DNA from: Bacteroides sp. f07
GTDB lineage: Bacteria; Bacteroidota; Bacteroidia; Bacteroidales; Bacteroidaceae
Assembly: GCF_042854785.1 (NCBI RefSeq)
Contig: NZ_BAABXI010000001.1
Span: forward strand, 2,795,656-2,835,655
DNA: 40,000 nt
Direction of reading: 5' to 3'
Position numbers and translations under genes: made by a program. The notes beneath the pieces are model-generated. The model was not told the origin of the DNA. It searched no databases and saw nothing but the letters and a program-made list of their open reading frames with translations. The first letter of the stretch is position 1, and every line of letters begins with the position of its first letter. Below are positions 7,137-20,329 of the stretch, in pieces.

Positions 7137-7949
7137 TCAGAACATAGCCAGTTGCCCGTCATTTACAAATTTCACCTCAATGGCGGGTTTCTTTTCAAAG
7201 AAACAATAGGCTGCTATTGCTGACAATGCATTTGCTATGAAGTTATTAAATGAACGATGTCTGGAGTGTTCAATCTGTGCAATGTTCTTCAATTCGTCAT
7301 TGACAGTTTCAATCAGAGCTCTCTTCCTAAGCAATATCTTATCAGCGATACTCATCAAGGAGTTCTTCATATTATTCTTGACCTTAGTAATCGTCTGTAT
7401 ACCATTAAGAAAGAGGTTCTCGAACAAAGTCTGACCGATATATCCCTTGTCCGCACACAATTTTCCCTTTATGTTTTCCAGAAACTTTCCTTGTTTCAAT
7501 GGTTCCCTGTCATCCACATTGCCGGGAGTAAACATAAAATTGAGAATCTCTCCTTTATCATTGATTATCAGATGCAGCTTGAATCCGAAGAACCATCCCA
7601 TAGAGCATCTTCCACGCTCGGCAAGTCCTTCGAAAGTCTTGTGAATCAATATTCGTTGGTTACGGCAGACACGGAAGGGAGTGGAATCGACAAAACTGAT
7701 ACCGGTACAACTGCCTAGCAGAACCTTTTTGATGAAAATGGTCAGAGGGAGAAGTATTTCTTTTTCCAGTTCCACAAAACGATTATAAGACACACATCGG
7801 GGAAACATTGGTATGTGAATATCCCAATTCACCACATTTGCAAGATAGTGTAGTTCATCAGGTTGTGTGAATACAGACAAATTGTTTAAGTCAATGTCTG
7901 GATTTCCAATAATGTAGTCATCCATATATTGTTTTACTTCATCTTTCAT
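7137..7949 (-). CDS. IS982-family DDE transposase (copy probably 5'-truncated or degenerate)
   Basis: The 270-aa ORF carries family motifs VSYNRFVEL, GISFVDSTP, GWFFGFKLHLIINDKGEI, NVDDREPL, ADKGY and IETVNDELKN. The N-terminal ~55 aa are shorter and more divergent than I remember for family members. I found no terminal inverted repeats by eye. Confidence 0.8.
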   Translation of the reverse strand: MKDEVKQYMDDYIIGNPDIDLNNLSVFTQPDELHYLANVVNWDIHIPMFPRCVSYNRFVELEKEILLPLTIFIKKVLLGSCTGISFVDSTPFRVCRNQRILIHKTFEGLAERGRCSMGWFFGFKLHLIINDKGEILNFMFTPGNVDDREPLKQGKFLENIKGKLCADKGYIGQTLFENLFLNGIQTITKVKNNMKNSLMSIADKILLRKRALIETVNDELKNIAQIEHSRHRSFNNFIANALSAIAAYCFFEKKPAIEVKFVNDGQLAMF

Positions 7950-7963
7950 ATTTTATTCATATT

Positions 7964-8019
7964 GACGATAATGGGTTGCAGCTTTCCGCCATTAGGCGGA
8001 ACAAGTGCTTGTTAGTAGC
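7964..8019 (-). repeat. attC-like site R1 (distal end of array, 3' of cassette 12)
   Basis: Plus strand: GACGATAATGG GTTGCAGCTTTCCGCC ATTA GGCGGAACAAGTGC TTGTTAGTAGC. Imperfect hairpin with a CCGCC/GGCGG inner stem. The outer arm TTAGTAGC pairs with GCTACTAA in R2. Confidence 0.8.
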
Positions 8020-8020
8020 A

Positions 8021-8689
8021 TCATTCCATTTTATACATTTTTTTCTCCCAACCTTTTAATTCTTGAAGAACAGGTTTAGGATTTTGCAATATCTGATTTA
8101 GAAATTCTATAAAGTTAGGTGCTAATACTTCCGTTGCAGGTGTTTCGTAATCAAAGAGGACAATTGCACCTTCTTTATTCTCATTATCTGTCAATTTAAG
8201 AGCTATCACGCCATAATCAGAATATTGACCTATCGCAAAATACCCTTTATCAAGAATTTCCTCTTGCAGTTCCTTATTATTTTCAATTAGGATTTTATTC
8301 CATGAATGAATGGGCTTTGGATATAGACGAACATCTAAATCCCAAAACATTTCATAAAAGTGTTTATATTTCAAGTAGGTCTTGTATGAAAGCGGAAGGA
8401 TAACATTTAATTTACTTTCTAATTTGGAAATATCCTCGTCTGAAATTTGATTATCTATCACTTTCCATACATGGTCTTTGTCCGTAATAATGTTCACCAT
8501 ATAATTAGTATGTTCCGGTTGAGTGACATATATCTTAACCGATTTCCCTTGAAGTATGCTATTATCTAACGAAGCCTGCATTTCAGGTTCTATGGGTTTC
8601 TCGTAAAAAGGAACATACATAAGATATTCTCTATGTTCTTTCACAAAGCCCAAGCATTCATCTACATATTTCTTTACTACTTCTTCCAT
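8021..8689 (-). CDS. Cassette 12: SMI1/KNR4 (SUKH-type) family protein, putative immunity protein
   Basis: 222-aa ORF. ISDEDISKLESKLNVILPLSYKTYLKY and a later GYFAIGQYSDYGVIALKL...GAIVLFDYE fit the SMI1/KNR4 pattern. No signal peptide. Confidence 0.65.
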   Translation of the reverse strand: MEEVVKKYVDECLGFVKEHREYLMYVPFYEKPIEPEMQASLDNSILQGKSVKIYVTQPEHTNYMVNIITDKDHVWKVIDNQISDEDISKLESKLNVILPLSYKTYLKYKHFYEMFWDLDVRLYPKPIHSWNKILIENNKELQEEILDKGYFAIGQYSDYGVIALKLTDNENKEGAIVLFDYETPATEVLAPNFIEFLNQILQNPKPVLQELKGWEKKMYKME

Positions 8690-8710
8690 ACTATTTTGTT
8701 TTTTAAATTC

Positions 8711-8764
8711 GCTACTAATTGTTTTCAGCTAATTGTTTTCAGTATTTAGTTGTTTGTTAGACCG
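8711..8764 (-). repeat. attC-like site R2 (degenerate, with 14-bp internal duplication)
   Basis: Plus strand: GCTACTAATTGTTTTCAGCTAATTGTTTTCAGTATTTAGTTGTTTGTTAGACCG. CTAATTGTTTTCAG occurs twice in tandem. The core TTGTTA contains the stop codon of cassette 11. Confidence 0.65.
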
Positions 8765-9065
8765 TTCCTAACTTATCATGTAACCCTGTTTGTGATAATA
8801 TTGAATAGAAATTATCAAATTTCCCGATCAGTTCATTAAAAGATGCGAACTCATATCTTTCGGAGAATAAACAATTCCCTGTTTCGATACTAAGGATTTC
8901 CATAACACAAGAATTATCATCCCATAGTGTTACACGACCTAAATTAGTATCATTATCTATATCAACATACATACTATGTACATAATCCGTATTTTCATGT
9001 ATTGTGTATGTACATGACTGATTATTAATCTGTTCTTTTATATAGGAAATGAATTTTCGTATCAT
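8757..9065 (-). CDS. Cassette 11: small hypothetical protein
   Basis: 102-aa ORF, acidic, no signal peptide. The stop TAA is the core TAA of site R2. The ATG is 8 nt downstream of the 3' end of intron 1. Confidence 0.6.
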   Translation of the reverse strand: MIRKFISYIKEQINNQSCTYTIHENTDYVHSMYVDIDNDTNLGRVTLWDDNSCVMEILSIETGNCLFSERYEFASFNELIGKFDNFYSILSQTGLHDKLGTV

Positions 9066-9114
9066 ATTATTTTATCGAGTAGGTCAGCCCTCTTTCGGGG
9101 GCTTTCCCCTCTAA

Positions 9115-9148
9115 GAACCGTACTTGATAGTTTCCCATCATACGGCTC
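9115..9148 (-). ncRNA. Group II intron domain V (copy 1)
   Basis: The minus strand reads GAGCCGTATGATGGGAAACTATCAAGTACGGTTC. It is 34 nt, with the AGC triad, a 2-nt bulge and a GAAA tetraloop. Confidence 0.9.
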
Positions 9149-9186
9149 AAGCATTTCTAAATTTAATTTTCATAAATTAAACCGGC

Positions 9187-10725
9187 TCAACTTACTTTCC
9201 TAAAAGTTTTCCCATTAGTCAGTTCTCGTTTCGCACAGAGTTTCCACGTAAGATATTCCTGCCATTGCGGGTCAAACGGATTGAGTTTTGCTTTGACCTT
9301 TCTATACCTTAAAATAGGGATGTCGGCTAATTGTTCCAACCTTATCCTTTCTTTGTTATCGGCTTTCTTGAAGTCTGTGGCGAACACCCAGTTTCTCTTC
9401 CCTTCCATTTTAAAATATCTCTCCTTTACCCATCGCCAAGTTTTCTTGTCATGTCTTCTGTGTGCCCACCTTTTGAGTTGTTTCACCAGTATGGTGTCCA
9501 GATCGCTGAACGTCTTCTTGGCGGATACAAATCTAAAGTAGTTGCCCCAACCTCTGAGTACCGGATTTAGTTTCCCGATCAAGTCCTCCTGTTTAGCGAC
9601 TTTATTCTTGAAGACCACTTCATGCGTTTTCTCCACAAACCTCTTGATACTCTTCTTTGAGGGTTTAATCAATACGTTCCTTTTATATCTTCGTATGTTA
9701 TATCCCAAGAAGTCGAACCCTTTAGTGATATGGGTTATCAACGTCTTCTCCTGCGAGAGTTCCAGTCCCCTGACGGCTAAAAAGTCTTTTAAGTCCTCCC
9801 TTATCTGTTCTAGCAGTTCCTTTGTGTCCGCTGAGACAACAAAATCATCCGCATAACGTATGAGATGAACTTTGGTACGGTAACGTTTACCGTTCACGTA
9901 CCTTTCTCTGTACTTCATTAGCAACATCTTTTCCATTCCATCCAGTGTGGCGTTTGCAAGTGTTGGCGATATAATACCGCCTTGCGGTGTTCCAGCCGTT
10001 GTAGGAGTGAGCAACTTGTTAAAGATAGCTCCACATTTCAACCACTTTCTTAGTATCTGCTTGTCGATTGGTACATTATCTACAAGCCATTCATGGCTGA
10101 TATTGTCGAAGCATCCTTTGATGTCTCCCTCCAATACCCACATCGGTGGGTTAGGTTGGTGGCTGAACAATATGTGTATCGCATCTATGGCATCTGCCGT
10201 ACTCCTGTATCTTCTGAACCCGTATGAGTTCGGGTCAGCCATTGTTTCCATTACCGGTTCGAGTGCCATTAGATATAACGCCTGCATTGCCCTATCTTTC
10301 ATGGTGGGTATGCCCAGCGGGCGTTTCTTGCCGTTGCTTTTGGCAATGTACACCCTTTTCAGTGGAAGTGGCTTGTAGCCCCTCCGTCTCAACGAAGCAA
10401 CCGCTTCGAGTTTATGCGCTTGGGTAGTCCATTTGATTTGGTCTACCCAAGCGGTTCTTTTTCCTTTGTTGGAAGTAACCCGTTTTACCGCCAGCGCTTT
10501 TGCGGCAAACGAGGTAGTCAGGATACGCTGCAAGGCTTTCACCTTTGCGTATCTCTTTTCCTTTTGAGCCTTTACAATCCGAGCTTGAAGCTTCCGCACA
10601 GCGGTTTGAAGCTTGTTCCAGTCTATGCTGTTCCAAGCCCCTTTGGGTCTGCTCCTGTGTGAAGACGCACACTTTGTTTTCACTCCGTCCATTTGCTTTT
10701 CTCCATTTAAAAGTTCTTCCTTCAT
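9187..10725 (-). CDS. Group II intron reverse transcriptase/maturase (copy 1)
   Basis: RT motifs RPLGIPTMKDRAMQ, TPQGGIISP and YADDFVV. Maturase X domain LNPVLRGWGNYFRF. No HNH/En domain. The start is uncertain: ATG at 10725 or 10692. The track ORF reaches 10875 by read-through of intron RNA sequence. Confidence 0.9.
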   Translation of the reverse strand: MKEELLNGEKQMDGVKTKCASSHRSRPKGAWNSIDWNKLQTAVRKLQARIVKAQKEKRYAKVKALQRILTTSFAAKALAVKRVTSNKGKRTAWVDQIKWTTQAHKLEAVASLRRRGYKPLPLKRVYIAKSNGKKRPLGIPTMKDRAMQALYLMALEPVMETMADPNSYGFRRYRSTADAIDAIHILFSHQPNPPMWVLEGDIKGCFDNISHEWLVDNVPIDKQILRKWLKCGAIFNKLLTPTTAGTPQGGIISPTLANATLDGMEKMLLMKYRERYVNGKRYRTKVHLIRYADDFVVSADTKELLEQIREDLKDFLAVRGLELSQEKTLITHITKGFDFLGYNIRRYKRNVLIKPSKKSIKRFVEKTHEVVFKNKVAKQEDLIGKLNPVLRGWGNYFRFVSAKKTFSDLDTILVKQLKRWAHRRHDKKTWRWVKERYFKMEGKRNWVFATDFKKADNKERIRLEQLADIPILRYRKVKAKLNPFDPQWQEYLTWKLCAKRELTNGKTFRKVS

Positions 10726-11347
10726 TTTGTAAAGAAACACCAGGCAGAAGTCAGCCTGCTTTCGCAGCGGGATAATGTCACCTTGCTTGTCACGCAGGCA
10801 TTGGCTCAATCCCGTATCCTCCCTCATTACAAGGGTGGCATTCGCTTTTTCCACCATCTCATACCCGCATACCATTCGGCTTTACTTACGTTCGGCTTAC
10901 CTGTCATTCATGGCAGGAGATATACGGGCTTACCAAGTTTCGCCCTCCAACTTACGGACGGATTAGGGTCTGTCCATCTGCCGACGGTGCTTTGTCCGTG
11001 TAACCCTCACCAAAAGAAAGGTTATCCGACCGTTTACCATTTTGGTCAAGGCTCGCCAGCATCTTGAGCCTTTCATTAGTCACGACAGTTCCCGACAGTT
11101 CAATTAATTTACCCATACCGTCCAGCTTAGCCCCTTAGTCGCCTGATGCTGGCGGCAGTTGATTCCCCTCACGGTTCTGTCTTCCCTTGCGGCGGGTTCG
11201 TTGTCGAACAGCTTCACACAACGTCATTGCTGGTGATGCATGTGTTCCAAGCTACTGCTGACGGAACAGCAGGTTCAGACAGCCTGTTTTCAACCCGTGA
11301 AATGGGTGCTGAACAATTAAGAGAGGCGACTTGCTTGTCGCACCTCA

Positions 11348-11407
11348 GTTGCTAATGGGTTGCAGCTAATCGCCATTTTAAGGCGATTGAGGTGCATGTT
11401 GTGTTTA
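11348..11407 (-). repeat. attC-like site R3 (occupied by intron 1)
   Basis: Plus strand: GTTGCTAATGGGTTGCAGCTAATCGCC ATTTTA AGGCGATTGAGGTGCA TGTTGTGTTTA. The ORF-proximal core is degenerate (TTGTG instead of TTGTTA; 1-nt deletion). Confidence 0.75.
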
Positions 11408-11427
11408 TTCCTTGCAATTTTAAGAAT

Positions 11428-11766
11428 CTATTCAGTAGTAATATCAAAATCTTGTTTATTTCTCCATGCTATCCTAAGATAATCACCTCTTATTAAACCT
11501 TTATCACGGTAATATCTAACTATTTCAGAGGGCGACCAATCCTTGCCATTGGAAAATAATGTTCCGATTTCTATTAACTTTTGAAAAAGAACTGCACGCT
11601 TTTCAACATCATCAGTAGGCATAGAAATAGAATAGTATGGTTCTACTTTTTCAAATCCAAGACTGATAAGTTCATTCTTAAAATTGTCATTATTATTAGC
11701 TATCAATATATTATTTCCTGCCAATTCAATAGCAACGACTTTATCTTTTAATTTTTCATTCATCAT
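11428..11766 (-). CDS. Cassette 10: small hypothetical protein
   Basis: 112 aa from ATG 11766 (MMNEKLKDK...). The track ORF starts at a GTG at 11775 that lies inside site R4. Confidence 0.6.
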   Translation of the reverse strand: MMNEKLKDKVVAIELAGNNILIANNNDNFKNELISLGFEKVEPYYSISMPTDDVEKRAVLFQKLIEIGTLFSNGKDWSPSEIVRYYRDKGLIRGDYLRIAWRNKQDFDITTE

Positions 11767-11768
11767 AT

Positions 11769-11825
11769 TAAACACTAATGTGTTTCAGCTAACTGCGTTT
11801 AGCTGTTTAGGTGATTGTTATGTGC
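11769..11825 (-). repeat. attC-like site R4
   Basis: Plus strand: TAAACACTAATGTGTTT CAGCTAA CTGCGT TTAGCTG TTTAGGTGATTGTTATGTGC, with a perfect 7-bp stem. The cassette 9 ORF reads through the core and stops in the loop. Confidence 0.75.
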
Positions 11826-12167
11826 CTTATTGTTCTCCTCTTCTATTTTCATAAGAAATATTTCTTGCAAATCGCCACTTATTATTTTACCGTTTAGAGT
11901 TAATTCAAAAAATCCTTCTTGTTCGGCAAAGGATGATACATTATCCAGTTTGGCAAAAACATTAGATAGGGTATCTGTCATAACTAAACGCACGAAAGTT
12001 TTTAGCTCTTTTCGCTGTTTTTCATTCAACTGGCTATATAACTCTTTACTATCATTCCAAGGCTCATAACCACCTTCTATTGATGGAGTATTTAGAGTGT
12101 TGAAATATCGACTTAAGTTATCCATTATTTCTTTTTTTAATGAATTGACAAATTCTACATCATTCAT
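11799..12167 (-). CDS. Cassette 9: small hypothetical protein
   Basis: 122-aa ORF, acidic, no signal peptide. Its 3' end overlaps site R4. Confidence 0.6.
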   Translation of the reverse strand: MNDVEFVNSLKKEIMDNLSRYFNTLNTPSIEGGYEPWNDSKELYSQLNEKQRKELKTFVRLVMTDTLSNVFAKLDNVSSFAEQEGFFELTLNGKIISGDLQEIFLMKIEEENNKAHNNHLNS

Positions 12168-12186
12168 ATTTTTCCATTTTTAAGTT

Positions 12187-12244
12187 GCACATAATGTCCG
12201 GCAGATAATCGACTATTAAGGTACTTTATCTGTTTGTTAGCAAT
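12187..12244 (-). repeat. attC-like site R5
   Basis: Plus strand: GCACATAATGTCCGG CAGATAA TCGACTATTAAGGTACT TTATCTG TTTGTTAGCAAT. The core TTA (12237-12239) is the stop codon of cassette 8. Confidence 0.8.
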
Positions 12245-12551
12245 CTAATTCATTTCCGTTTAATAATTCTATATCTCCTAATGCTTTATATTCCCTGTCC
12301 AAATCTTCTTTTGTGAATAGGTAATAATTGTCCTCAAATCTTGGCATATCATAGCCTTTTACAAAAGATAAGAAAGAGAATATTTCTGCATCTATATCTA
12401 TACCTTGATTATCCTTGTTATCCAAAGCAAATAATAGATTATCAGCTTTCATCGAAATTCTATTTCTAATACCTTCTACATTATATTCTTCATTATCAGG
12501 TAACTCTTTAAGTATCTGATAGAAGTTTATTATCTGTTGTTTTACTTTCAT
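12237..12551 (-). CDS. Cassette 8: small hypothetical protein
   Basis: 104-aa ORF, acidic. The stop codon is embedded in the R5 core. Confidence 0.6.
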   Translation of the reverse strand: MKVKQQIINFYQILKELPDNEEYNVEGIRNRISMKADNLLFALDNKDNQGIDIDAEIFSFLSFVKGYDMPRFEDNYYLFTKEDLDREYKALGDIELLNGNELDC

Positions 12552-12568
12552 TCATAATTTGTTTAGTG

Positions 12569-12624
12569 ATTGCTAATGGGATGCAGCTTGCCGCTGTTAG
12601 GTGGCACAGGTGCTTGTTATAAGC
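12569..12624 (-). repeat. attC-like site R6
   Basis: Plus strand: ATTGCTAATGGGATGCAGCTTGCC GCTGTTA GGTGGCACAGGTGC TTGTTATAAGC. The stem has one bulged base and one C:C mismatch. Confidence 0.8.
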
Positions 12625-13091
12625 TAATTTTCGTATTCAATCTTGTAATCTTCATATACATTGAATACAGTTTCACAATCAGATAAAATACTTTCAAGCA
12701 AAGGTTTGACCTCACTATTCCAATCCAACTTACCCAAACCTGCACCTATTTTCGGGAGCGACACAGTTTTAATACCTCTGCTTTCGCATACTTTTTTCAA
12801 GCGTTTCAAGCCTTTATTCAGATATGTAAGTTCTGCATGATACATATCCGGTTGTGTAGCGATGTAGATTATACCCGGAGAGAAACCTTTGATTTCTCCT
12901 ATAAACATATCACCTGCTTGAAACTTGGTGTTTCGTGTGTACTTCTTAAAGAGTTTTTGGATTTCAGGGAATTGACTTGATAGCTTAAAGGCAAGCCCAG
13001 TTCCTAATCCTTCTTGTGAGCCAACAGCCACACCTTGCGCTATGTACTCATCTTTGCTTTGCAATATATCTCCCGAAATGTATTTTATCAT
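12624..13091 (-). CDS. Cassette 7: macro-domain (ADP-ribose-binding/hydrolase fold) protein
   Basis: 155-aa ORF. MIKYISGDILQSKDEYIAQGVAVGSQEGLGTGLA..., a later KTVSLPKIGAGLG and a small size fit stand-alone macrodomain proteins. Confidence 0.6.
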   Translation of the reverse strand: MIKYISGDILQSKDEYIAQGVAVGSQEGLGTGLAFKLSSQFPEIQKLFKKYTRNTKFQAGDMFIGEIKGFSPGIIYIATQPDMYHAELTYLNKGLKRLKKVCESRGIKTVSLPKIGAGLGKLDWNSEVKPLLESILSDCETVFNVYEDYKIEYEN

Positions 13092-13111
13092 ATTGTTTCC
13101 GTTTTTCTGTT

Positions 13112-13170
13112 GCTTATAATAGGTTTGTGAATAACTGACCGTTAAGGCAGTTCATTCGCTTGTTACCAAT
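13112..13170 (-). repeat. attC-like site R7 (same subfamily as R12)
   Basis: Plus strand: GCTTATAATAGGTTTGTGAATAACTGACC GTTA AGGCAGTTCATTCGC TTGTTACCAAT. In the cassette-sense strand the stem GAATGAACTG/CAGTTATTC has one extrahelical G. Confidence 0.8.
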
Positions 13171-13173
13171 ATT

Positions 13174-13461
13174 TCAATCTCCACTTACCCAAATTGTGTT
13201 TTTATCTATTATCATAGGACGCAAATTCTTAACGAACTCTATTATAATTTTCATTGATTGTTTATCCGACGTCTTTATATAATCATTTGCCAAATTAATA
13301 AGTAATTCAAGATTTTGAGGTATCAATCTTGTATCTCCATATTCATCAATACTCAATCCTGTCTTTACATGAAACTGCAAGAAGACGGGTTGTAATATTC
13401 TCAATTCAACATCATTCAAAGCGAAGTGATGATTATTCATTGTATTGCTAAAATCTAACAT
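13174..13461 (-). CDS. Cassette 6: small hypothetical protein
   Basis: 95-aa ORF with no recognisable motifs. Confidence 0.55.
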   Translation of the reverse strand: MLDFSNTMNNHHFALNDVELRILQPVFLQFHVKTGLSIDEYGDTRLIPQNLELLINLANDYIKTSDKQSMKIIIEFVKNLRPMIIDKNTIWVSGD

Positions 13462-13476
13462 TTCAATTATTTGTTT

Positions 13477-13532
13477 ATTGGTAATGGTAGCTAACCGACC
13501 TTTACGGGGAGGTTAAGCCGCTTGTTACCTGC
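13477..13532 (-). repeat. attC-like site R8
   Basis: Plus strand: ATTGGTAATGGTAGCTAACCGACC TTTAC GGGGAGGTTAAGCCGC TTGTTACCTGC. The cassette-sense stem GCTTAACC/GGTTAGC has one extrahelical T. The core TTA (13525-13527) is the stop codon of cassette 5. Confidence 0.8.
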
Positions 13533-13860
13533 TTTTTCGAGTTATTACAATATCATCAAAACTTAATAGCAAAGACTGACCGTTTGGTCTATATTCCTTC
13601 CAATCTTCAATGTCGGGACTTTCATAATCCATCATTATATGATAAAAGGAGTAAAGACCGAAATTTTCTTGAGGTAAGTCCGGCAGACTATGTATGTCAT
13701 AACATCCAACACCTTCCAATCCTTTTTCTTCAATCCGTTTTAACCATCCTAAAGCCTTATCTATTTGTTGAAGATAGGGAAGTTCCTGTTGATTGCCATG
13801 CTTCAAAGCATCAACAGTTTTTATTCGTTCTTTTTGTAATAACTCAATTATATCTTTCAT
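13525..13860 (-). CDS. Cassette 5: small hypothetical protein
   Basis: 111 aa from ATG 13860 (MKDIIELLQKE...). The track ORF extends to 13950 only because intron domains V/VI happen to be open in frame (MLEPYDGKLSSTVLRGG...). Confidence 0.6.
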   Translation of the reverse strand: MKDIIELLQKERIKTVDALKHGNQQELPYLQQIDKALGWLKRIEEKGLEGVGCYDIHSLPDLPQENFGLYSFYHIMMDYESPDIEDWKEYRPNGQSLLLSFDDIVITRKSR

Positions 13861-13910
13861 TTTATTTATCGGATAGGTCGGAGGCATTGCTGCCCCTTTC
13901 CCCCCCCTAA

Positions 13911-13944
13911 GAACCGTACTTGATAGTTTCCCATCATACGGCTC
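13911..13944 (-). ncRNA. Group II intron domain V (copy 2)
   Basis: Identical 34-nt GAGCCGTATGATGGGAAACTATCAAGTACGGTTC on the minus strand. Confidence 0.9.
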
Positions 13945-14021
13945 AAGCATTTCTAAATTTAATTCTCATAAATTAAACCGGCTCAACTCGCTTTCCTTGA
14001 GGTCTTTCTCTTAGTCAGTTC

Positions 14022-15536
14022 TCATTTAGCACGGAGTTTCCACATCATATATTCCTGCCATTCGGGGGCGAACGGGTTCATTTCTGCTTTAACTTTCCTA
14101 TACCTTAAAATAGGGATGTCGGCTAATTGTTCCAACCTTATCCTTTCTTTTTTATCGGCTTTCTTAGAGTCTGCGGCAAAGCCCCAGTTTCTACGCCCTT
14201 CCGTTTTGAAATATCTCTGTTTCACCCATCGGCGGCTTTTCTTGGGATGTCTTCTGCTTGCCCATCTCTTGAGTTGCCTTACCAAGATGGAGTCCAGATT
14301 GCTGAACGTCTTCTTGGCAGATACAAACCTAAAGTAGTTTCCCCATCCTCTCAGTACGGGATTGAGCTGCATAATCAAATCCCCCTGTTTGGCGGTCTTG
14401 TTCCCGAATATAACCTCGTGAGTCTTTTCCACAAATCTTTTCACGCTCTTCTTTGCGGGTTTTATCAATATGTTCTTTTTGTATCGGCGTATATTGTAAC
14501 CCAAAAAGTCAAAGCCCTCGGTGATATGTGTAATCAGCGTTTTCTCCTCCGATAGTTCCAGCCCCCTGACGGCTAAGAAGTGTTTCAAGTCCTCTTTGAC
14601 TTGTTCCAGCAGTTCCCTTGTGTCAGCTGATACGACAAAGTCATCCGCATAACGTACCAAATGGACTTTGGGGCGATATCGTTTTCCGTTCACGTATCTT
14701 TCCCTGTACTTCTTTAGCAACATCTTTTCCATTCCGTCCAACGTGGCGTTCGCCAACGTCGGCGATATAATGCCACCTTGCGGTGTCCCTGCCGTTGTGG
14801 GGGAGAGTAACTTGTTGAAGACCGCTCCGCATTTCAGCCACTTCTTTAATATCTGCTTGTCGATTTGTACATTATCCACAAGCCACTCGTGGCTGATGTT
14901 GTCAAAGCACCCTTTAATGTCTCCCTCCAGTACCCATTGTGGCGGGTTAGGCTGGTGGCTGAACATTATATGCAGCGCATCTATGGCGTCCGCTGTGCTT
15001 CTGTATCTTCTAAACCCGTATGAATTCGGGTCTGCGGTCGTTTCCGTCACAGGTTCGAGAGCCATCAGATATAATGCCTGCATTGCCCTGTCTTTCATGG
15101 TGGGTATGCCCAACGGGCGTTTCTTGCCATTGCTCTTGGCGATGTACACCCTTTTCAGTGGAAGTGGCTTATAGCCTCTCCGTTTTAACGAAGTTACTGC
15201 TTCGAGCTTTTGCGCTTGGGTAGTCCATTTTATATTGTCCACCCCTGCGGTTCGTTTCCCTTTATTGGAAGTGACACGTTTGACTGCCAGCGCTTTCGCA
15301 GCAAACGAGGTAGTCAAGATACGTTGCAAGGATTTTACCTTGTTGTATCTCTTTTCCTTTTGAGCCTTTACAATCCGTACCTGAAGCTTTCGCACAACAG
15401 CTTGTAGCTTGTCCCAGTCCATACTGTTCCAAGCTCCTTTCGGTCTGCCCCTGCGTGAAGATGCACACTGTGTTTTCACTTCGTTCATTTGCCTTTCTTC
15501 ATTTAAAAGTTCTTCATTCGTTTTGTAAAGAAACAC
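14022..15536 (-). CDS. Group II intron reverse transcriptase/maturase (copy 2)
   Basis: 504-aa ORF that aligns with copy 1 throughout. I counted about 60 substitutions in about 470 aligned residues by hand, with no frameshifts. YADDFVV and the X domain are intact. An alternative start is ATG 15488. Confidence 0.9.
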   Translation of the reverse strand: MFLYKTNEELLNEERQMNEVKTQCASSRRGRPKGAWNSMDWDKLQAVVRKLQVRIVKAQKEKRYNKVKSLQRILTTSFAAKALAVKRVTSNKGKRTAGVDNIKWTTQAQKLEAVTSLKRRGYKPLPLKRVYIAKSNGKKRPLGIPTMKDRAMQALYLMALEPVTETTADPNSYGFRRYRSTADAIDALHIMFSHQPNPPQWVLEGDIKGCFDNISHEWLVDNVQIDKQILKKWLKCGAVFNKLLSPTTAGTPQGGIISPTLANATLDGMEKMLLKKYRERYVNGKRYRPKVHLVRYADDFVVSADTRELLEQVKEDLKHFLAVRGLELSEEKTLITHITEGFDFLGYNIRRYKKNILIKPAKKSVKRFVEKTHEVIFGNKTAKQGDLIMQLNPVLRGWGNYFRFVSAKKTFSNLDSILVRQLKRWASRRHPKKSRRWVKQRYFKTEGRRNWGFAADSKKADKKERIRLEQLADIPILRYRKVKAEMNPFAPEWQEYMMWKLRAK

Positions 15537-16148
15537 CAGACGGAAGTCTGCCTGTTTTCACAGTGGAATGATGTCGCTTCGCTATTTTATATTATGTATG
15601 GCTACGCTCAATTCCTATCCTCCCTCATTACAAGGGTGGCGTTCGCTTTCTCCATCCTCTCATACCCGCATACCGTTCGGCTTTACTTGCGTTCGGCTTA
15701 CCTGCTGTTCATGGCAGGAGATATACGGGCTTACCAAGTTTCGCCCTCCAACTATCGCCCGGGTTAGAGCCCGTCCATCTGACGGCGGTGCTTTGTCCGT
15801 GTAACCCTCACAACAAGAAAGGTTATCCGACCGTTTACCATTTTGGTCAAGGCTCGCCAGCATCTTGAGCCTTTCATTAGTCACGACAGTTCCCGACAGT
15901 TCAATTAATTTACCCATACCGTCCAGCTTAGCCCCTTAGCCACCTGATGCTGGCGGCAGTTGATTCCCCTCGCGGTTCTATCTTCCCTTGTGGCGGGTTC
16001 GTTGTCGAACAGCTCCACACAACGTCATTGCTGGTGATGCATGTGTTCCAAGCTACTGCTGACGGAACAGTAGGTTCAGACAGCCTGTTTTCAACCCGTG
16101 AAATGGGTGCTGAACAATTAAGAGAGGCGACTTGCTTGTCGCACCATT

Positions 16149-16206
16149 GTTGCTAATGTCCAGCGGCTAACTGACTTTTCAGAAGTTAAGCCGTTTGTTA
16201 TCAGTC
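16149..16206 (-). repeat. attC-like site R9 (occupied by intron 2)
   Basis: Plus strand: GTTGCTAATGTCCAGCGGCTAACTGAC TTTTC AGAAGTTAAGCCG TTTGTTATCAGTC. The cassette-sense stem CGGCTTAAC/GTTAGCCG has one extrahelical T. Confidence 0.8.
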
Positions 16207-16212
16207 ATATTT

Positions 16213-16584
16213 TTATTCAGAGCTTTTATATTTACTATATTTCTCAATCCATCCCTCTTGAGAATATAATTCACCACACAATCCATCAGATATGTCAGCC
16301 AAAGATGTCACATCTTTTTCTGAATTAGAAATCTTCCAATCATCAATATCTTGTTCAAAAAAGAACAGAGTATTATGAATTGTGGAATCCACCATTTTAT
16401 AGACTATTTGCCTTATGAGTTCTACATCTTCATTTTTAAGGTTATTTATGGCTTCATGTAGTTTCCGGTCAGATGTACTTTTCATGTGCCCTGAAACAGT
16501 TCCTTCAAAAACAAATAAGCTATTATCCCTTACGCTTTTGACGAAATCTTTTCCAAATTGATTTAGTATTTCTTTTGTTTCCAT
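16213..16584 (-). CDS. Cassette 4: small hypothetical protein
   Basis: 123-aa ORF, acidic, no signal peptide. Confidence 0.6.
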   Translation of the reverse strand: METKEILNQFGKDFVKSVRDNSLFVFEGTVSGHMKSTSDRKLHEAINNLKNEDVELIRQIVYKMVDSTIHNTLFFFEQDIDDWKISNSEKDVTSLADISDGLCGELYSQEGWIEKYSKYKSSE

Positions 16585-16598
16585 TTTATTTCTTTTTT

Positions 16599-16654
16599 GA
16601 CTGATAATGTTTGGCAGCGTGCCGCTTTAAGCGGTGTGCTGTTTGTTAGCAACC
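16599..16654 (-). repeat. attC-like site R10
   Basis: Plus strand: GACTGATAATGTTTGG CAGCGTGCCGC TTTAA GCGGTGTGCTG TTTGTTAGCAACC. On the plus strand the stem holds three G:T wobbles. On the cassette-sense (minus) strand these same positions are A:C mismatches. The cassette 3 ORF reads through the core and stops in the loop. Confidence 0.8.
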
Positions 16655-17028
16655 TCTTTAATACTAACGTCTCCCAACACTACAATATAAGAGTTGAAGG
16701 TCATTCCATTCACTTCTTCTTCATCTCCGTCAGCCTTAACAAGACTTTTAAGAAGGCTTGAAACTGGAACTAATAATTGAGGATTGTCGGTCGATGATTT
16801 ATACTTTGTATAAATCGCATTTATTTGATGGACTGTTCCTTGTAGAGTAAGTAGTCCGTCACTTGTTTCATAATGCGCATCGTAGATATATTCTATTGTT
16901 TGGGTGATGTCAGTTAATGTTTTATTAAAAGCAAAAACATCCCATTTAACCATATCGCCTATGCTGAATGGTTGACCGCAACATTGCATCTGCCATCCTT
17001 CATAAAGTACTGTACAATATGTTTTCAT
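16627..17028 (-). CDS. Cassette 3: small hypothetical protein (EGWQMQCCGxPF motif)
   Basis: 133-aa ORF. The N-terminal Cys-rich motif YEGWQMQCCGQPFSIGDMVKW recurs, as I recall, in uncharacterised small proteins. The 3' end overlaps R10. Confidence 0.6.
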   Translation of the reverse strand: MKTYCTVLYEGWQMQCCGQPFSIGDMVKWDVFAFNKTLTDITQTIEYIYDAHYETSDGLLTLQGTVHQINAIYTKYKSSTDNPQLLVPVSSLLKSLVKADGDEEEVNGMTFNSYIVVLGDVSIKEVANKQHTA

Positions 17029-17044
17029 ATCTTTTATTTTTATT

Positions 17045-17101
17045 GGTTGCTAATGGTTTGCAGCTAATCGCTTTCAGTACGATTAGCCACATGTTATCGG
17101 C
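17045..17101 (-). repeat. attC-like site R11 (looks like an unoccupied intron target)
   Basis: Plus strand: GGTTGCTAATGGTTTGCA GCTAATCG CTTTCAGTA CGATTAGC CACATGTTATCGGC, with a perfect 8-bp inner stem. The left half is nearly identical to R3. Confidence 0.8.
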
Positions 17102-17108
17102 ATATTGA

Positions 17109-17480
17109 TTATTTAATGATAGTCAAATCTCCATCTACAAATCCCACTGCGATATGTTCTACTTTAAAAAGTTTTAAATCAGTAAGATCCTTGATTAAAT
17201 CTTTGAGGATAGGTGCAACAATTTCTAACACTTCTTCCCATTTTAGATTGCCTGAGATTTCAAAATCAGGACAACTCCTTTGAGTTGGTTCAAAACTTTC
17301 ATCACATGCCCAATCTTCATCCTTTTCATCAAACCAAGTAGAGCCGACCATTTCTATGCCATAAGGTTCATAAAGATTAAAGCTCAAAGCCACAATATCA
17401 GAAGGCAATTCTTCTGTTTTATCAATATTGACAATCCATTTTTTGATAATTTCCTTTAAATCATTCGTTTTAGTATTCAT
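17109..17480 (-). CDS. Cassette 2: small hypothetical protein
   Basis: 123-aa ORF, very acidic, no signal peptide. Confidence 0.6.
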   Translation of the reverse strand: MNTKTNDLKEIIKKWIVNIDKTEELPSDIVALSFNLYEPYGIEMVGSTWFDEKDEDWACDESFEPTQRSCPDFEISGNLKWEEVLEIVAPILKDLIKDLTDLKLFKVEHIAVGFVDGDLTIIK

Positions 17481-17514
17481 TTTTCTTCCTATTAAAAATT
17501 AAACATTTTATTAA

Positions 17515-17572
17515 GCCGATAATGGTTTGTGAATAGCTGACCATTAGGGCAGTTCATTCACTTGTTATTCGC
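17515..17572 (-). repeat. attC-like site R12 (same subfamily as R7)
   Basis: Plus strand: GCCGATAATGGTTTGTGAATAGCTGACC ATTA GGGCAGTTCATTCAC TTGTTATTCGC. Confidence 0.8.
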
Positions 17573-17575
17573 ATA

Positions 17576-18202
17576 TTATTCCTGTTGCCAATATGGGTGC
17601 AAAGCTGTTTCAGCTTTGAAATTCGGGATGTTAAATTCATAAATCCAATCAAGGCGAGTCCAAATGCCAGAGTTTTCACCGACCATAAGCATCCTTTCAT
17701 TACAAAAAACAGCTTCCATTTCATAAGGGCGACGACCAATTTCAAAGTTCATAACTATAAACCGAACAGGGGATTTCTCTTGCTTTGGAATCACAATAGA
17801 ATTGCATTGAAAAACCGATTTAGCTTGTTTACCTATGGACTTGTTGTTTTTACTCATTGCTTCAATAGCTTTCTTTGCGTTTCTTGATACCACCTTTGGA
17901 TTGTAACCTGGACCATATTGGGGGTTGATATCAGCAGGCAATAAGTTCATTTGCCTTGATAGCTTTACAAGTCCCTCGATAATCATCTCTTTTATATTCA
18001 TTGGGTTGATTTTACAAAACTCTTCCCATGCGGCAAGTTGTTTTTCTGTAGGAGAATTTTCATCCCCGACATCAAACCACGCAACAAAATCCCCGTCCAA
18101 AGAATTTATGTTAATTGAATGTTCGGTTTCATATAATCCAAGTTCTCCAATTCTCCAAAATTGGGGATTAAAACTTGATATGTTATTTATTGTTTTAGTC
18201 AT
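17576..18202 (-). CDS. Cassette 1: hypothetical protein
   Basis: 208-aa ORF, the first after the recombinase. No signal peptide and no recognisable motifs. Confidence 0.6.
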   Translation of the reverse strand: MTKTINNISSFNPQFWRIGELGLYETEHSININSLDGDFVAWFDVGDENSPTEKQLAAWEEFCKINPMNIKEMIIEGLVKLSRQMNLLPADINPQYGPGYNPKVVSRNAKKAIEAMSKNNKSIGKQAKSVFQCNSIVIPKQEKSPVRFIVMNFEIGRRPYEMEAVFCNERMLMVGENSGIWTRLDWIYEFNIPNFKAETALHPYWQQE

Positions 18203-18214
18203 TTTCTTTCCTTT

Positions 18215-18266
18215 GCGAATAACGTTATGCTAACAGCGGTCATTTAATGTTTCGCTGTTATTTTTT
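18215..18266 (-). repeat. First site of the array (attI-like position, between recombinase stop and cassette 1)
   Basis: Plus strand: GCGAATAACGTTATGC TAACAGCG GTCATTTAATGTTT CGCTGTTA TTTTTT, with a perfect 8-bp stem. In cassette sense the junction core reads ACGTTATTCGC, with G rather than A before TTA, unlike the other sites. Confidence 0.65.
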
Positions 18267-18278
18267 CTAAGTATTTTA

Positions 18279-18719
18279 TTAAATCTCTTCTTCTAAAATA
18301 TCGTCCAACGGACTTTTAATTTTGCTTTTGTAAGTGTCTGCAATATGGACGTACATCTCTGTTGTCTTAATATTTTCATGCCCCAACAGTTCTTTTATGA
18401 TTTTCAAGTCCGTTCCTTGTTCTATTAAATGTGTAGCGAACGAATGGCGGAACAAGTGGGGATATACTCTTTTTGTTATACCTGCTTCATGGGCTATCTC
18501 TTTCAGTTTTTTGGAAACGATACTTTCAGAGAATTGTACTCCGGCTTCACGTTCAAAAAGCCACTTTTCCGACTGATATGCTATCCTATATTCTTCCAGT
18601 TTATTGATAAACGGTTTGGATAGCAGCGTATATCGGTCTTTCTTCCCCTTCCCCTTTCCCTGTCGCACATGTATCAGTGAACAGGAAATGTTTATATCAT
18701 CCGGTTTTAAATTCAGCAT
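18279..18719 (-). pseudogene. Tyrosine recombinase, C-terminal catalytic half only (XerD-like; N-terminal half missing)
   Basis: The 146-aa ORF starts just after where the box-I Arg should be (MLNLKPDDI...). It keeps GKGKKDR, HLFRHSFATHL, LLGHENIKTTEMYVH and the C-terminal IKSPLDDI. Only about 50 aa lie between KDR and GIT, so the IntI-specific extra domain is absent. The upstream sequence is closed by stops in the same frame. Confidence 0.8.
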
Positions 18720-18761
18720 TATGTTAATTCATTTTCTTATCTACTTAATGACAATATTGGG

Positions 18762-18769
18762 CAAATTTA
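18762..18769 (-). promoter_or_regulatory. Candidate -7 promoter box upstream of recombinase remnant and array
   Basis: The minus strand reads TAAATTTG (TAnnTTTG consensus) about 43 nt upstream of ATG 18719. I saw no clear -33 TTTG. Confidence 0.3.
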
Positions 18770-19050
18770 CGCTATTTCCTTCTATTCTCTATTCTGATTT
18801 TCATCACATACATTCTGATAACTCATCAATATCGGTATAACGTCCCTAAAATACGGTTTTATTTCATCACCCACAAAAAAGCTGTTAGTTTTTTCCTCTA
18901 TCCTATAAAATAGTCTCTCTTGACTGGCAATTGCACAATGATCTGTTACATAATTCATAACTATACAATGATCAGTCTCCTATTCTCAGCATTTATAAAT
19001 GCCACTATGAGATCATTGCCGTTCATCGATTTCACCTGATTGTCGAAATA

Positions 19051-19080
19051 CCGATGAATAAGGAGATAGCGGGTGAAAGC
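19051..19080. repeat. Inverted repeat, left copy (core)
   Basis: The reverse complement of CCGATGAATAAGGAGATAGCGGGTGAAAGC matches 19395-19424 at 28 of 30 positions. Weaker similarity extends to roughly 19028-19122. Confidence 0.85.
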
Positions 19081-19162
19081 AAGTGGTAAATTCAAGTAAA
19101 ACTGAACATCAGCGGTTTCACCCTGTCTTTTCAAAATATCCCTTGAGCTAAAACAAATATCA

Positions 19163-19225
19163 TTATAGCTAATCCGGATATGCTTATAGCTAATCGAAAT
19201 ATGCTAATAGCAAATCCGCTGTCAG
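19163..19225. repeat. 3 x 21-bp tandem direct repeat (TTATAGCTAATCnnnATATGC)
   Basis: Units at 19163-19183 (TTATAGCTAATCCGGATATGC), 19184-19204 (TTATAGCTAATCGAAATATGC) and 19205-19225 (TAATAGCAAATCCGCTGTCAG, degenerate). They contain the GCTAAT motif also found in the cassette-site cores. Confidence 0.8.
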
Positions 19226-19246
19226 GTATTAATAGATAATCCATCA

Positions 19247-19334
19247 GGATCTATATATCCAACACATTGAATCTATATACTTACCGCATTGAATCTATAT
19301 ATTCAGCACGGTGGCTCTATATGTCCAGCAATCG
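19247..19334. repeat. 4 x 22-bp tandem direct repeat (GRMTCTATATRYYY...), iteron-like
   Basis: The four units are GGATCTATATATCCAACACATT, GAATCTATATACTTACCGCATT, GAATCTATATATTCAGCACGGT and GGCTCTATATGTCCAGCAATCG. Confidence 0.85.
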
Positions 19335-19394
19335 GTATAAATAAATTTGAAAGGTGAAAGCAATAACGGGAGATTTCACCTTAATTTTCTCTAC

Positions 19395-19424
19395 GCTTTC
19401 ACCCGCTATCTGCTTATTCATCGA
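19395..19424. repeat. Inverted repeat, right copy (core)
   Basis: GCTTTCACCCGCTATCTGCTTATTCATCGA. It lies inside a plus-strand open frame (19347-19529, TTG-initiated) whose translation resembles a recombinase N-terminal SAM-like domain. Confidence 0.85.
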
Positions 19425-19840
19425 TGTTTCAGAGATAAGGTGAAACAGGTGGAATTTATAAGTCAAAAGTTCATGTTATACTTATGTGAATCAGTAATTA
19501 ATTTGATACCTTCGGTTTACCTCTACTGATTATTAAAGATAAAACAACTTTTGTTTCTTCTCTCATTCCCCTGCATTTTCACAATTCCGCGACAAAGAAC
19601 AAACTCATTTTCTTCTTGGTTTATCATGGATATTGAATAAGAAAAACATAACAGAATAAGCAATAATTCATAATTAGCCTATCCAAATGAGAAATATAAA
19701 CGATAAATGATTACTATTTACTCTACAAATCCACTCATTTCCTACTATAAAACCAGAGTAATCGCAACAAAACAGATTTCGATATATAGGTCAAAAAAAA
19801 TCCTTTTTTAGTTGGCTATACAAAATTATCTTCAAAAAGA

Positions 19841-20329
19841 CTACAATACGACAATCAATCCTATGACAGTCAATGCCGTATATACACAGTTGATATAAAA
19901 GGCAACCATTAATAACCGGGGGATATATTCCGGATTCTTGAATAAGGATGAAGCCTGACTGACCAACAAAGAAAGGAAAAGTACAAGACTAAAAATGACC
20001 TGGCTTATCAGCAACCATACCGGATATTCCGGTATAGAAGATACTGCCCATGTCTGAAGCAAAGGAGTAATGTTTTGCAAAAAGACATGAGCGGCAAAAT
20101 AACTCAAAGAAGGTACAACTTCCTTTTTCTGCCGCAGAAGTGCATTTATTGCATAAATACCCATTCGAATTTGTCCCACCAGTATGGAAAGTTGAAAAAA
20201 GTAGAAAATCCAAGATATTGGATTTTCCGTGATTCTATCGGTTACGAAGTAATCATAAAAACAGAGTGAGGACACGCAGCTTATTGCTATAAGTCCGGCA
20301 CAAATAAATGAAGCACTTCTTTTATTCAT
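19841..20329 (-). CDS. Hypothetical integral membrane protein
   Basis: 162-aa ORF with about 5 hydrophobic spans and no recognisable motifs. Confidence 0.55.
   Translation of the reverse strand: MNKRSASFICAGLIAISCVSSLCFYDYFVTDRITENPISWIFYFFQLSILVGQIRMGIYAINALLRQKKEVVPSLSYFAAHVFLQNITPLLQTWAVSSIPEYPVWLLISQVIFSLVLFLSLLVSQASSLFKNPEYIPRLLMVAFYINCVYTALTVIGLIVVL

Follow-up and report, generated by a model that had tools for sequence, protein, structure and literature searches.

The window analysed here is a stretch of 40,000 nucleotides of Bacteroides sp. f07 (contig NZ_BAABXI010000001.1, positions 2,795,656 to 2,835,655 of the forward strand), and it carries one rAID-1 cluster (recombinase-associated acquired interbacterial defence), i.e. 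a system of an already known kind in Bacteroidales (Ross et al. 2019; bioRxiv 10.1101/471110). The repeats that lie 3' of the small genes of this cluster are read here, with a probability of about 0.7, as the attC analogues of the rAID-1 array; recombination would take place on one folded single strand, namely the strand antisense to the cassette genes. The reading draws on a family of related sites, in which the stem is kept by compensatory change, an extrahelical base stands at a fixed position, wobble pairs fall on one strand, and cassettes are bounded and shuffled at the sites.

Clusters of this kind occur in more than half of the Bacteroidales that have been sequenced, and almost every adult gut metagenome examined contains them; their repeats have already been termed 'reminiscent of integrons', in a published account that rests on MEME motifs (bioRxiv 10.1101/471110). 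How rAID clusters arise and gain genes is still an open question according to a preprint of 2025 (PMC12247911). The literature searched, in which the 2019 Nature paper was not covered in its subscription version, yielded no account of the repeat hairpin, of where exactly the cassettes begin and end, of the strand bias or of the extrahelical base at its fixed position.

Related loci were collected by a scan with a recombinase alignment, one genome per species, which yielded 80 loci. A covariance model built from 12 window sites found 146 sites in the window and in 24 Bacteroidales loci (113 distinct sequences from 25 sources), and about 130 related sites were compared overall. All 146 sites of the model lie downstream of the recombinase gene, in a single orientation relative to this gene; the model gave zero matches at more distant recombinase loci (Marinilabiliales, Prolixibacteraceae and others). 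Two simpler searches were set aside: regular expressions combined with 7-of-8 flank matching lost true sites, because the complementary flank is often just 6 nt, and non-greedy matching halted at an inner ATTA, so the covariance model was used instead; a generic TTA-N7...N7-TAA scan of the 80 loci was too noisy in AT-rich DNA to judge arrays at distant recombinase loci.

The strand polarity of the sites is pronounced. When 80 distinct sites were folded with DNA parameters in the circular form, i.e. as in a circularised cassette, the antisense strand had the lower minimum free energy (MFE) in 70 sites and the sense strand in eight, with two ties (mean -13.1 versus -11.4 kcal/mol; Wilcoxon p = 7e-12). 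With the inner part taken by itself, the antisense strand was lower in 53 sites and the sense strand in 20, and composition-matched shuffles account for only -0.23 of the inner-stem strand difference of -0.86 kcal/mol. The model alignment contains 117 G:T pairs on the antisense strand and 10 on the sense strand, beside 815 Watson-Crick and 75 other combinations. With one representative per cluster these numbers become 51 versus 7 (90% identity) and 21 versus 5 (80% identity), and at the 80% level 14 clusters favour antisense and one favours sense. A strand-neutral aligner, restricted to isolated mismatches flanked by Watson-Crick pairs, gave 35 G:T on antisense versus 6 on sense, with a further 31 mismatches being transversions. 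A second site type of the same architecture (17 sites, whose adjoining recombinases are only about 52% identical) has 41 G:T on antisense and one on sense. The outer N8 flanks are without an antisense excess (11 sense G:T versus 3 A:C, outside the invariant C:A). The wobble signature is therefore one-sided, and it points to selection for folding of the gene-antisense strand, as in integrons, since an mRNA element would need pairing of the sense strand and a duplex site would show no polarity.

The stem itself covaries. In the nine modelled stem pairs of the 113 distinct sites, 91.6% of the cells are standard pairs, compared with 69.1% after shuffling (none of 500 shuffles reached the observed value). 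Changes on both sides occur in all nine pairs, with 226 double-change cells versus 73 expected; the covariation score is 0.68 versus 0.29, and slid-partner controls pair in 28-48%. In the larger family alignment the stem is thus kept by compensatory change and not by sequence conservation.

The position of the bulge is fixed as well. One unpaired column on the arm proximal to the open reading frame (ORF) is occupied in 112 of the 113 distinct sites, and its base on the folding strand is near uniform in frequency (T 33, C 29, A 26, G 24). Counted from GTTA, the column is 8 nt to the 5' side and so corresponds to position 16 of the R''-L'' arm in attC numbering; in VCR2/1 this is the position of the first extrahelical base, G16, whose nature was shown to be of little importance (PMC2727003). 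The strand-neutral aligner placed one ORF-proximal bulge in 61 of the 80 distinct circular-form sites (46 of 63 bulges at nt 11-12 from the T of TAAC), and about three extra bases on the opposite arm beside the R box. A second conserved bulge was not seen in the family alignments of the sites.

The boundaries of the cassettes follow from the flanks of the sites. In 95 of 119 consecutive site pairs (window and 24 loci), the TTA flank at the start of a cassette is complementary to the N+TAA ahead of the cassette's own site, by the criterion of at least five contiguous complementary nt directly beyond TAA/TTA (mode 6-7, maximum 10); the control, with the two flanks of one site taken as they stand in the array, gave 1 of 146. 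The rule is obeyed by 10 of the 12 window sites, in which the left flank of site k+1 (N8+TAA) pairs with the right flank of site k (TTA+N8). As the complementarity lies between site k+1 and site k, a site can form the complete hairpin only once its cassette is circular. Among 26 identical site cores that were seen at least twice, the flanks in the next cassette differ in 19 and the flanks in the own cassette in five, and the pairwise divergence rises from 0.15-0.2 to 0.4-0.6 exactly after ATTA. From these linkage breakpoints and the jump in divergence it follows that the site travels with its upstream ORF and that the break is at A|TTA, which is the integron cassette rule.

The junction behind the recombinase stop codon is conserved as ...AATAACAGCCAAATCGGCTGATAGTATAAC(G/A)|TTA (ending ATAAC(G/A)|TTA) in at least 14 related loci, and in each of these the next 6-8 nt can pair with the flank of the first attC-like site. 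Since this junction follows the same complementarity logic, it would serve as attI; its core carries G or A where the attC-like sites have A before TTA. In these respects the locus resembles an integron platform, with a putative attI beside the recombinase gene and cassettes of one ORF and one site with boundaries in the core triplet.

Identical cores were also seen on different cassettes: five occur with different upstream cassettes (in loci L002, L005, L006, L007, L009 and L021; example core TAACAAACAGCAAACCGACTGAATAAGCGGAACGCTGCCAAACATTA), and one of them was seen with four different flanks in its own cassette. Unrelated genes thus carry near-identical sites, as is the case with the Vibrio VCRs, and this bears on how new cassettes arise.

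In the window, 12 attC-like sites of 44-49 nt, reading TAAT...GTTA on the plus strand, and one attI-like junction were located (bit scores are those of the covariance model; folds are energies in kcal/mol, on the plus or the sense strand).

R1, 7969..8014, plus strand: attC-like site; 57.3 bits; circular-form fold -14.5 (z -4.9); bulged base C on plus, G on sense; G:G mismatch.
R2, 8716..8759, plus strand: attC-like site, AT-rich and weakly folding; 45.2 bits; fold only -1.0.
R3, 11353..11401, plus strand: attC-like site; 52.8 bits; GTTG replaces GTTA (1-nt core loss).
R4, 11776..11820, plus strand: attC-like site; 52.0 bits; fold -10.6 (plus) versus -8.7 (sense).
R5, 12192..12239, plus strand: attC-like site; 50.2 bits; fold -9.8 (plus) versus -8.7 (sense).
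R6, 12574..12619, plus strand: attC-like site; 56.3 bits; fold -13.6 (plus, z -4.3) versus -7.6 (sense, z -1.2).
R7, 13117..13165, plus strand: attC-like site; 50.0 bits; fold -11.1 (plus) versus -8.8 (sense).
R8, 13482..13527, plus strand: attC-like site; 42.7 bits; its R'' flank mismatches the start of its own cassette, which holds intron 2.
R9, 16154..16200, plus strand: attC-like site; 50.2 bits; fold -13.7 (plus) versus -14.1 (sense).
R10, 16605..16648, plus strand: attC-like site; fold -17.0 (plus) versus -14.6 (sense); inner-stem G:T wobbles on plus only; MFE fold bulge-free.
R11, 17051..17096, plus strand: attC-like site; fold -14.0 (plus) versus -15.2 (sense).
R12, 17520..17567, plus strand: attC-like site; 50.3 bits; fold -14.4 (plus) versus -12.3 (sense).
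R13, 18220..18260, minus strand: attI-like junction adjoining the recombinase stop codon; sense ...AATAACAGCG-N15-CGCTGTTAGCATAACG|TTATTCGC, the first cassette beginning at TTATTCGC.

Folded as DNA in the circular form, nine window sites range in z-score from -4.0 to -6.1 (plus strand) and from -1.2 to -6.4 (sense strand); the plus strand is more stable in six, the sense strand in two, and one is a tie. The strand bias within the window is thus modest, and it is decisive only in the larger family.

A first-pass annotation of this DNA, whose coordinates span only R6 to R12, had likened the site hairpins to attC sites and suggested single-strand, structure-specific recognition, and the structural details that it listed are all present in the sequence. 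Thus, in terms of the sense strand, the bulged base on the ORF-proximal arm is G in R6, R7 and R12, T in R8 and R9, and C in R3, as it had given; beyond that list it is G in R1 and A in R2, R4 and R5, in the same alignment column. In the model alignment all 12 window sites have this one extra base in the same column of the ORF-proximal arm, while the MFE folds of both R10 and R11 are bulge-free. The C:C mismatch reported for R1, R3 and R6 (G:G on plus) was recovered, and R4 has one too; the three inner G:T wobbles of R10 on the plus strand are indeed A:C on the sense strand. The outer arm, N8+TAA with TTA+N8, pairs in the circular-cassette form of 10 of the 12 sites, whereas the flanks are unpaired in the array. 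The bubble next to the core is real on the sense strand, where CA(A/T) and (N)CA are unpairable in nearly all 146 sites, but on the plus strand the same positions are T.G/G.T and are paired in the MFE folds. The two strands do fold unequally, as had been proposed; the better folder is the antisense (plus) strand, on which the sense-strand bubble is partly closed by wobbles. The suggested recognition of a single strand by its structure is supported by the larger family alignment, through the covariation, the fixed bulge column and the one-sided wobbles. A lack of any consistent bulge position or strand bias would have spoken against it; the larger family shows both.

The R'' flank of R2 (8756-8767) has lost 2 nt relative to the same cassette in the syntenic metagenome contig L001 (11090-11146). 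R2 and R3 are decayed sites, in keeping with a recombinase that has ceased to maintain the array. A second TAAY/RTTA motif is found in the inner stem of eight of the 12 window sites (R2-R5, R7-R9 and R11; e.g. R9, 16164-16172 and 16185-16193) and of most family members. Its polarity is that of the outer core (direct arrangement), whereas the L boxes of canonical attC sites are described as inverted relative to the R boxes.

Several points weigh against recombination of a folded antisense strand. Because the seed of the covariance model was the antisense strand, the model favours G:U there; the strand-neutral aligner is free of this bias, but its counts are smaller. The sites are related and not independent, and single-linkage clustering at 70% leaves three clusters, at which level the wobble test loses power. 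In the array context the R box is only TAAT/GTTA, because the site's own flanks are not complementary, and in two of the nine window sites folded on both strands it is the sense strand that folds better. On the side of the enzyme, residues 186-241 of IntI4, a stretch that includes the IntI-specific additional domain and binds extrahelical bases in integrons, face only 13 residues in the recombinase of L002. Finally, the evidence for single-strand recombination in the rAID family is all comparative.

The sites could instead be classical core sites that are bound as duplexes, as at dif, with exchange of both strands; the ability to form a hairpin would then simply follow from the dyad symmetry. 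In favour of this are the Xer-like length of the recombinase and its lack of an IntI insertion, the palindrome TAAC-GTTA in the putative attI, and site arms that end in TAA, as those of dif do. A duplex site would conserve its sequence, however, whereas the stem has three times the expected double changes (226 versus 73 cells); it predicts no preference of G:T over A:C, where 117 versus 10 were observed and 35 versus 6 with the neutral aligner; and a fixed one-base asymmetry of the arms and a 'central region' of 40 nt are ill-suited to a core site. We consider this explanation unlikely, though it is the strongest of those weighed here. If the hairpins acted in the cassette mRNA instead, by terminating, processing or stabilising a polycistronic transcript between its genes, this would suit their occurrence in every intergenic spacer, on the transcribed side and 3' of each ORF, and the rAID genes are expressed (bioRxiv 10.1101/471110). 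Such a role is nevertheless very improbable: the non-Watson-Crick positions of the sense strand are A:C mismatches and not G:U, this strand folds less well in 70 of the 80 sites, no T run follows the stem, and the linkage breakpoints at the site ends would be left unexplained. A function as RNA terminator was rejected on the wobble polarity and the missing T runs.

That the locus is an ordinary integron with a degraded integrase gene and plain attC sites is hardly to be expected either, despite the layout of array, attI and tyrosine recombinase, a match to TIGR02249 ('integron integrase') of 204.8 bits and a C-terminal SPLD tail in common with IntI4. The TIGR02249 score is below the cut-off of 265, the full-length members of the family keep an N-terminal domain and are without the IntI insertion (L002 compared with IntI4), R' is A|TTA in about 140 of 146 sites and not G|TT, and IntegronFinder 2.0 reports hardly any elements in Bacteroidetes (PMC9024848), yet rAID-1 occurs in more than half of Bacteroidales genomes. 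The antisense excess of wobbles might also be a mutational artefact, e.g. of strand-biased deamination, and not the result of selection for folding; the uniformly negative plus-strand GC skew across the window indicates that a strand-biased mutation pressure exists. But the outer flanks are free of the wobble bias, which argues against a general mutational cause, the shuffles explain only about a quarter of the inner-stem energy difference, and a 10- to 40-fold bias far exceeds the strand asymmetries that are generally known, so a mutational origin appears most improbable.

A cassette in sense orientation consists of TTA+N6-10, one ORF, N6-10'+TAA-C, a spacer, an imperfect stem-loop and CA. 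In the excised circle the two cassette ends would pair into an R box of 9-13 bp, adjoined by an asymmetric bubble and then by the L stem with its one extrahelical base on the ORF-proximal arm. The strand used would be the one antisense to the cassette genes (plus in the window; the equivalent of the integron bottom strand), and it would be recombined, folded and single-stranded, by the Xer/IntI-like tyrosine recombinase encoded at the array head, with cleavage at TAA|Y and exchange with the attI junction ...ATAAC(G/A)|TTA just past the recombinase stop. We infer in this scheme the single strand as the substrate, the cleavage point within TAA|Y, and the adjacent recombinase as the enzyme.

The plus-strand GC skew is negative in almost every 1-kb interval from 7001 to 40000, so the predicted folding strand may be the one that serves as template for leading-strand synthesis, although a gene-strand bias could give the same skew. 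Placement on the leading-strand template is reported for sedentary chromosomal integrons.

The recombinase gene of the window is a remnant.

18279..18719, minus strand: rAID tyrosine recombinase remnant of 146 aa, Xer/IntI-like, with NCBIfam and Pfam matches.

A protein of 'Bacteroides sp. f07' matches it with 100% identity. It is 96% identical to residues 229-372 of the 372-aa recombinase P0198 of B. fragilis and keeps only this part, so that it lacks the first catalytic Arg as well as the N-terminal and core-binding domains. The deletion is visible by comparison with contig L001, which has the same flanking genes, a less truncated recombinase (238 of about 372 aa) and different cassettes, and the window remnant is collinear with XerC. 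Since the cassettes differ despite truncated genes in both, a recombinase acting in trans or a replacement of the whole array may have been at work. The TriTu cassette is the first in L001 and the eleventh in the window array. With its 146-aa recombinase remnant, two decayed sites, and two introns and one insertion sequence that have landed in it, the window array can probably no longer change, unless it is served by a second recombinase in trans. Window positions 18279-19800 and L001 positions 8900-10720 share a non-coding stretch of about 1 kb upstream of the recombinase gene, with inverted repeats near 19045-19085 and 19395-19435, and with short direct repeats at 19150-19340 that L001 has too (gctaatc-type units and several atctatata copies, with spacers of about 20 nt).

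Full-length recombinases of the family have about 370-376 aa; more than 5,200 clusters match at E <= 1e-40, and among 120 listed most have 369-376 aa. The domain order is a conserved N-terminal domain of about 95 aa (22 of 22 aligned members), a SAM-like core-binding domain and the catalytic domain. The N-terminal domain has no Pfam match; it contains the motifs KPRI.LS, AYLP and FFDRYV..AFIDYSA (L002:9602-9890, L012:9611-9890) and is confidently predicted to fold as beta-beta-alpha-beta-beta-alpha-beta, and it is a candidate replacement for the missing IntI domain. Modelled with AlphaFold, the full-length recombinase gave a structure that is poor overall (predicted local distance difference test score, pLDDT, of 60; shallow alignment), with only the N-terminal domain confident; searched with Foldseek, the model matched mostly XerA and IntI4, and a SUI1/YciH-like match of the N-terminal domain was too weak to be relied on. 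The nearest solved relatives, to which the enzyme is equally close, are XerA (5hxy, 7e-39) and VchIntIA (2a3v, 1.3e-37); the alignment with VchIntIA falls into two pieces at the site of the IntI segment. No aligned family member has an extra segment at the position of the IntI insertion, so the IntI additional domain (I2 helix region) is absent. As there is no IntI segment for extrahelical bases, the likeness to integrons is in the DNA and not in a protein module.

A recombinase of about 50% identity is encoded in an environmental Bacteroidales metagenome-assembled genome (L030), together with repeats of about 135 nt (13500-13670, 16646-16816 and 20107-20277). These are bounded by CTAAC...AACG|TTA. 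When the antisense strand is folded, two of the three copies give a single hairpin that is long and imperfect, while the sense strand gives small, separate ones; an attI-like ...GATACG|TTAGCA follows the recombinase gene. The family of recombinases and sites may therefore extend beyond gut Bacteroidales, with a G|TTA core.

The array and its distal border comprise the following features.

7961..18268, minus strand: rAID-1 cassette array; 12 co-oriented small ORFs, each with an attC-like site 3' of it.
8021-8689, 8757-9065, 11428-11775, 11799-12167, 12237-12551 and 12624-13091, minus strand: cassette ORFs 1-6 in coordinate order, from the ORF list.
13174-13461, 13525-13860, 16213-16584, 16627-17028, 17109-17480 and 17576-18202, minus strand: cassette ORFs 7-12 in coordinate order, from the ORF list.
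7137..7949, minus strand: IS982-family transposase gene (NF033520, 225.7 bits), which abuts R1 and marks the distal end of the array.

At the end that is upstream on the minus strand, the array is closed by the R13 junction and then the 146-aa tyrosine recombinase ORF. The cassette stretches have a GC content of 0.33-0.37, compared with 0.42-0.46 in the flanking DNA, and Pfam families among the cassette ORFs are SUKH/SMI1-KNR4, TriTu immunity protein, Macro and DUF6578. The cluster thus has the hallmarks of rAID-1, namely a recombinase at the head (here the truncated, XerD-like gene related to P0198), at least two co-directional downstream genes with a GC content of at most 41% (here 12), and orphan immunity genes (SUKH, TriTu and Macro) with repetitive intergenic motifs (12 repeats that fit one covariance model). 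An Rfam scan of the window matched group II introns only; there is no Rfam family for the sites, nor for attC.

9079..11343, minus strand: group II intron copy 1 (Rfam RF02012 and RF00029), with a reverse transcriptase/maturase ORF at 9187-10875.
13873..16144, minus strand: group II intron copy 2 (Rfam), with a reverse transcriptase/maturase ORF at 14022-15536 (TIGR04416, 365 bits).

The two copies are 97% identical over the 300 nt compared, and they are insertions in the array and not part of the sites. Each lies 9 nt past the sense-strand TTA (plus-strand TAA) of a site (R3 and R9), and both are preceded by the identical exon sequence ATTAGCAAC. The boundary complementarity fails in exactly the two intron-bearing cassettes. 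The two introns resemble the group IIC-attC introns of integrons in being group II introns that target the neighbourhood of cassette hairpins. An assignment to this group was ruled out by orientation, as both copies lie in the sense of the cassette genes, whereas the IIC-attC introns of integrons sit in the bottom strand, opposite to cassette transcription (PMC3001079).

Overall, rAID-1 may well represent a second lineage of integron-type machinery, in which cassettes would be captured through a folded single-stranded hairpin of attC geometry by an Xer-like enzyme that never had or has lost the IntI domain, regarded as essential for reading such sites, and that has a new N-terminal domain; we favour this view, somewhat less firmly than the attC-like nature of the repeats. 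If it is true, attC-type single-strand recombination would not be a monopoly of IntI and would operate in more than half of human gut Bacteroidales. The choice of strand in integrons is attributed to extrahelical bases that are read by the IntI-specific domain, and the same DNA geometry in the absence of this domain would mean that there is another way of reading the bulge, or that the shape of the DNA alone suffices. The question of how rAID clusters gain genes is given testable parts, i.e. the TAA|Y boundaries, the attI junction, the predicted folded substrate and the strand expected to be active. Furthermore, the covariance model of the sites could be used to annotate rAID arrays and orphan cassettes in gut metagenomes, also where the recombinase gene is absent.

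Among known systems, Xer/dif, including archaeal XerA, is closest in the enzyme: the best match in sequence and fold is XerA 5hxy, and the catalytic domain is of the length class without the IntI insertion. In contrast, Xer acts on one duplex dif of 28 bp per replicon, with inverted arms and a central region of 6-8 bp, whereas the rAID arrays consist of covarying hairpins of 44-52 nt that delimit mobile genes, with 12 gene-tied sites of 44-49 nt in the window.

The 'inverted' integrons of Treponema and relatives share with rAID a recombinase gene that is co-oriented with the cassettes, and an attI that directly follows this gene. Their integrases reportedly have the IntI additional domain, unlike the rAID recombinases. 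In integrons, attC sites were reportedly described by MacDonald in 2006 as being recombined by IntI in the form of folded bottom strands. The work of Bouvier (2009; PMC2727003) likewise has IntI recombining attC sites as folded bottom strands.

The likeness of the rAID sites to attC lies in an imperfect hairpin, kept by its structure, with an outer R box, an unpaired asymmetric spacer and an L stem; in an extrahelical base on the ORF-proximal (R''-L'') arm at an equal distance from the core; in an R'' that ends in AAC and a G after the AAY triplet on the bottom strand; in a site that belongs to the upstream ORF, its last half belonging to the next cassette; and in a match to attI of only 3 nt and the better folding of the gene-antisense strand. 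There are also clear differences. Of the attC core, R''=RYYYAAC and R'=G|TTRRRY, only R'' fits, as (N)TAAC; R' is (C/A)CA|TTA, and with A|TTA the closing pair becomes T.G when the bottom strand is folded and A/C when the top strand is. The complementarity of the R box in the circular form is 9-13 bp in rAID and 7 bp in integrons. The rAID sites have one extrahelical base whose identity is not conserved, whereas integrons have two or three with a conserved G in L'' and a second or third base 6-8 nt further on. The recombinase gene points in the same direction as the cassettes, and the enzyme has the extra conserved N-terminal domain of about 95 aa in place of an IntI additional domain. With both the IntI domain and the GTT core missing, the rAID array is not filed as an integron, though as far as its sequence tells it is integron-like in its working.

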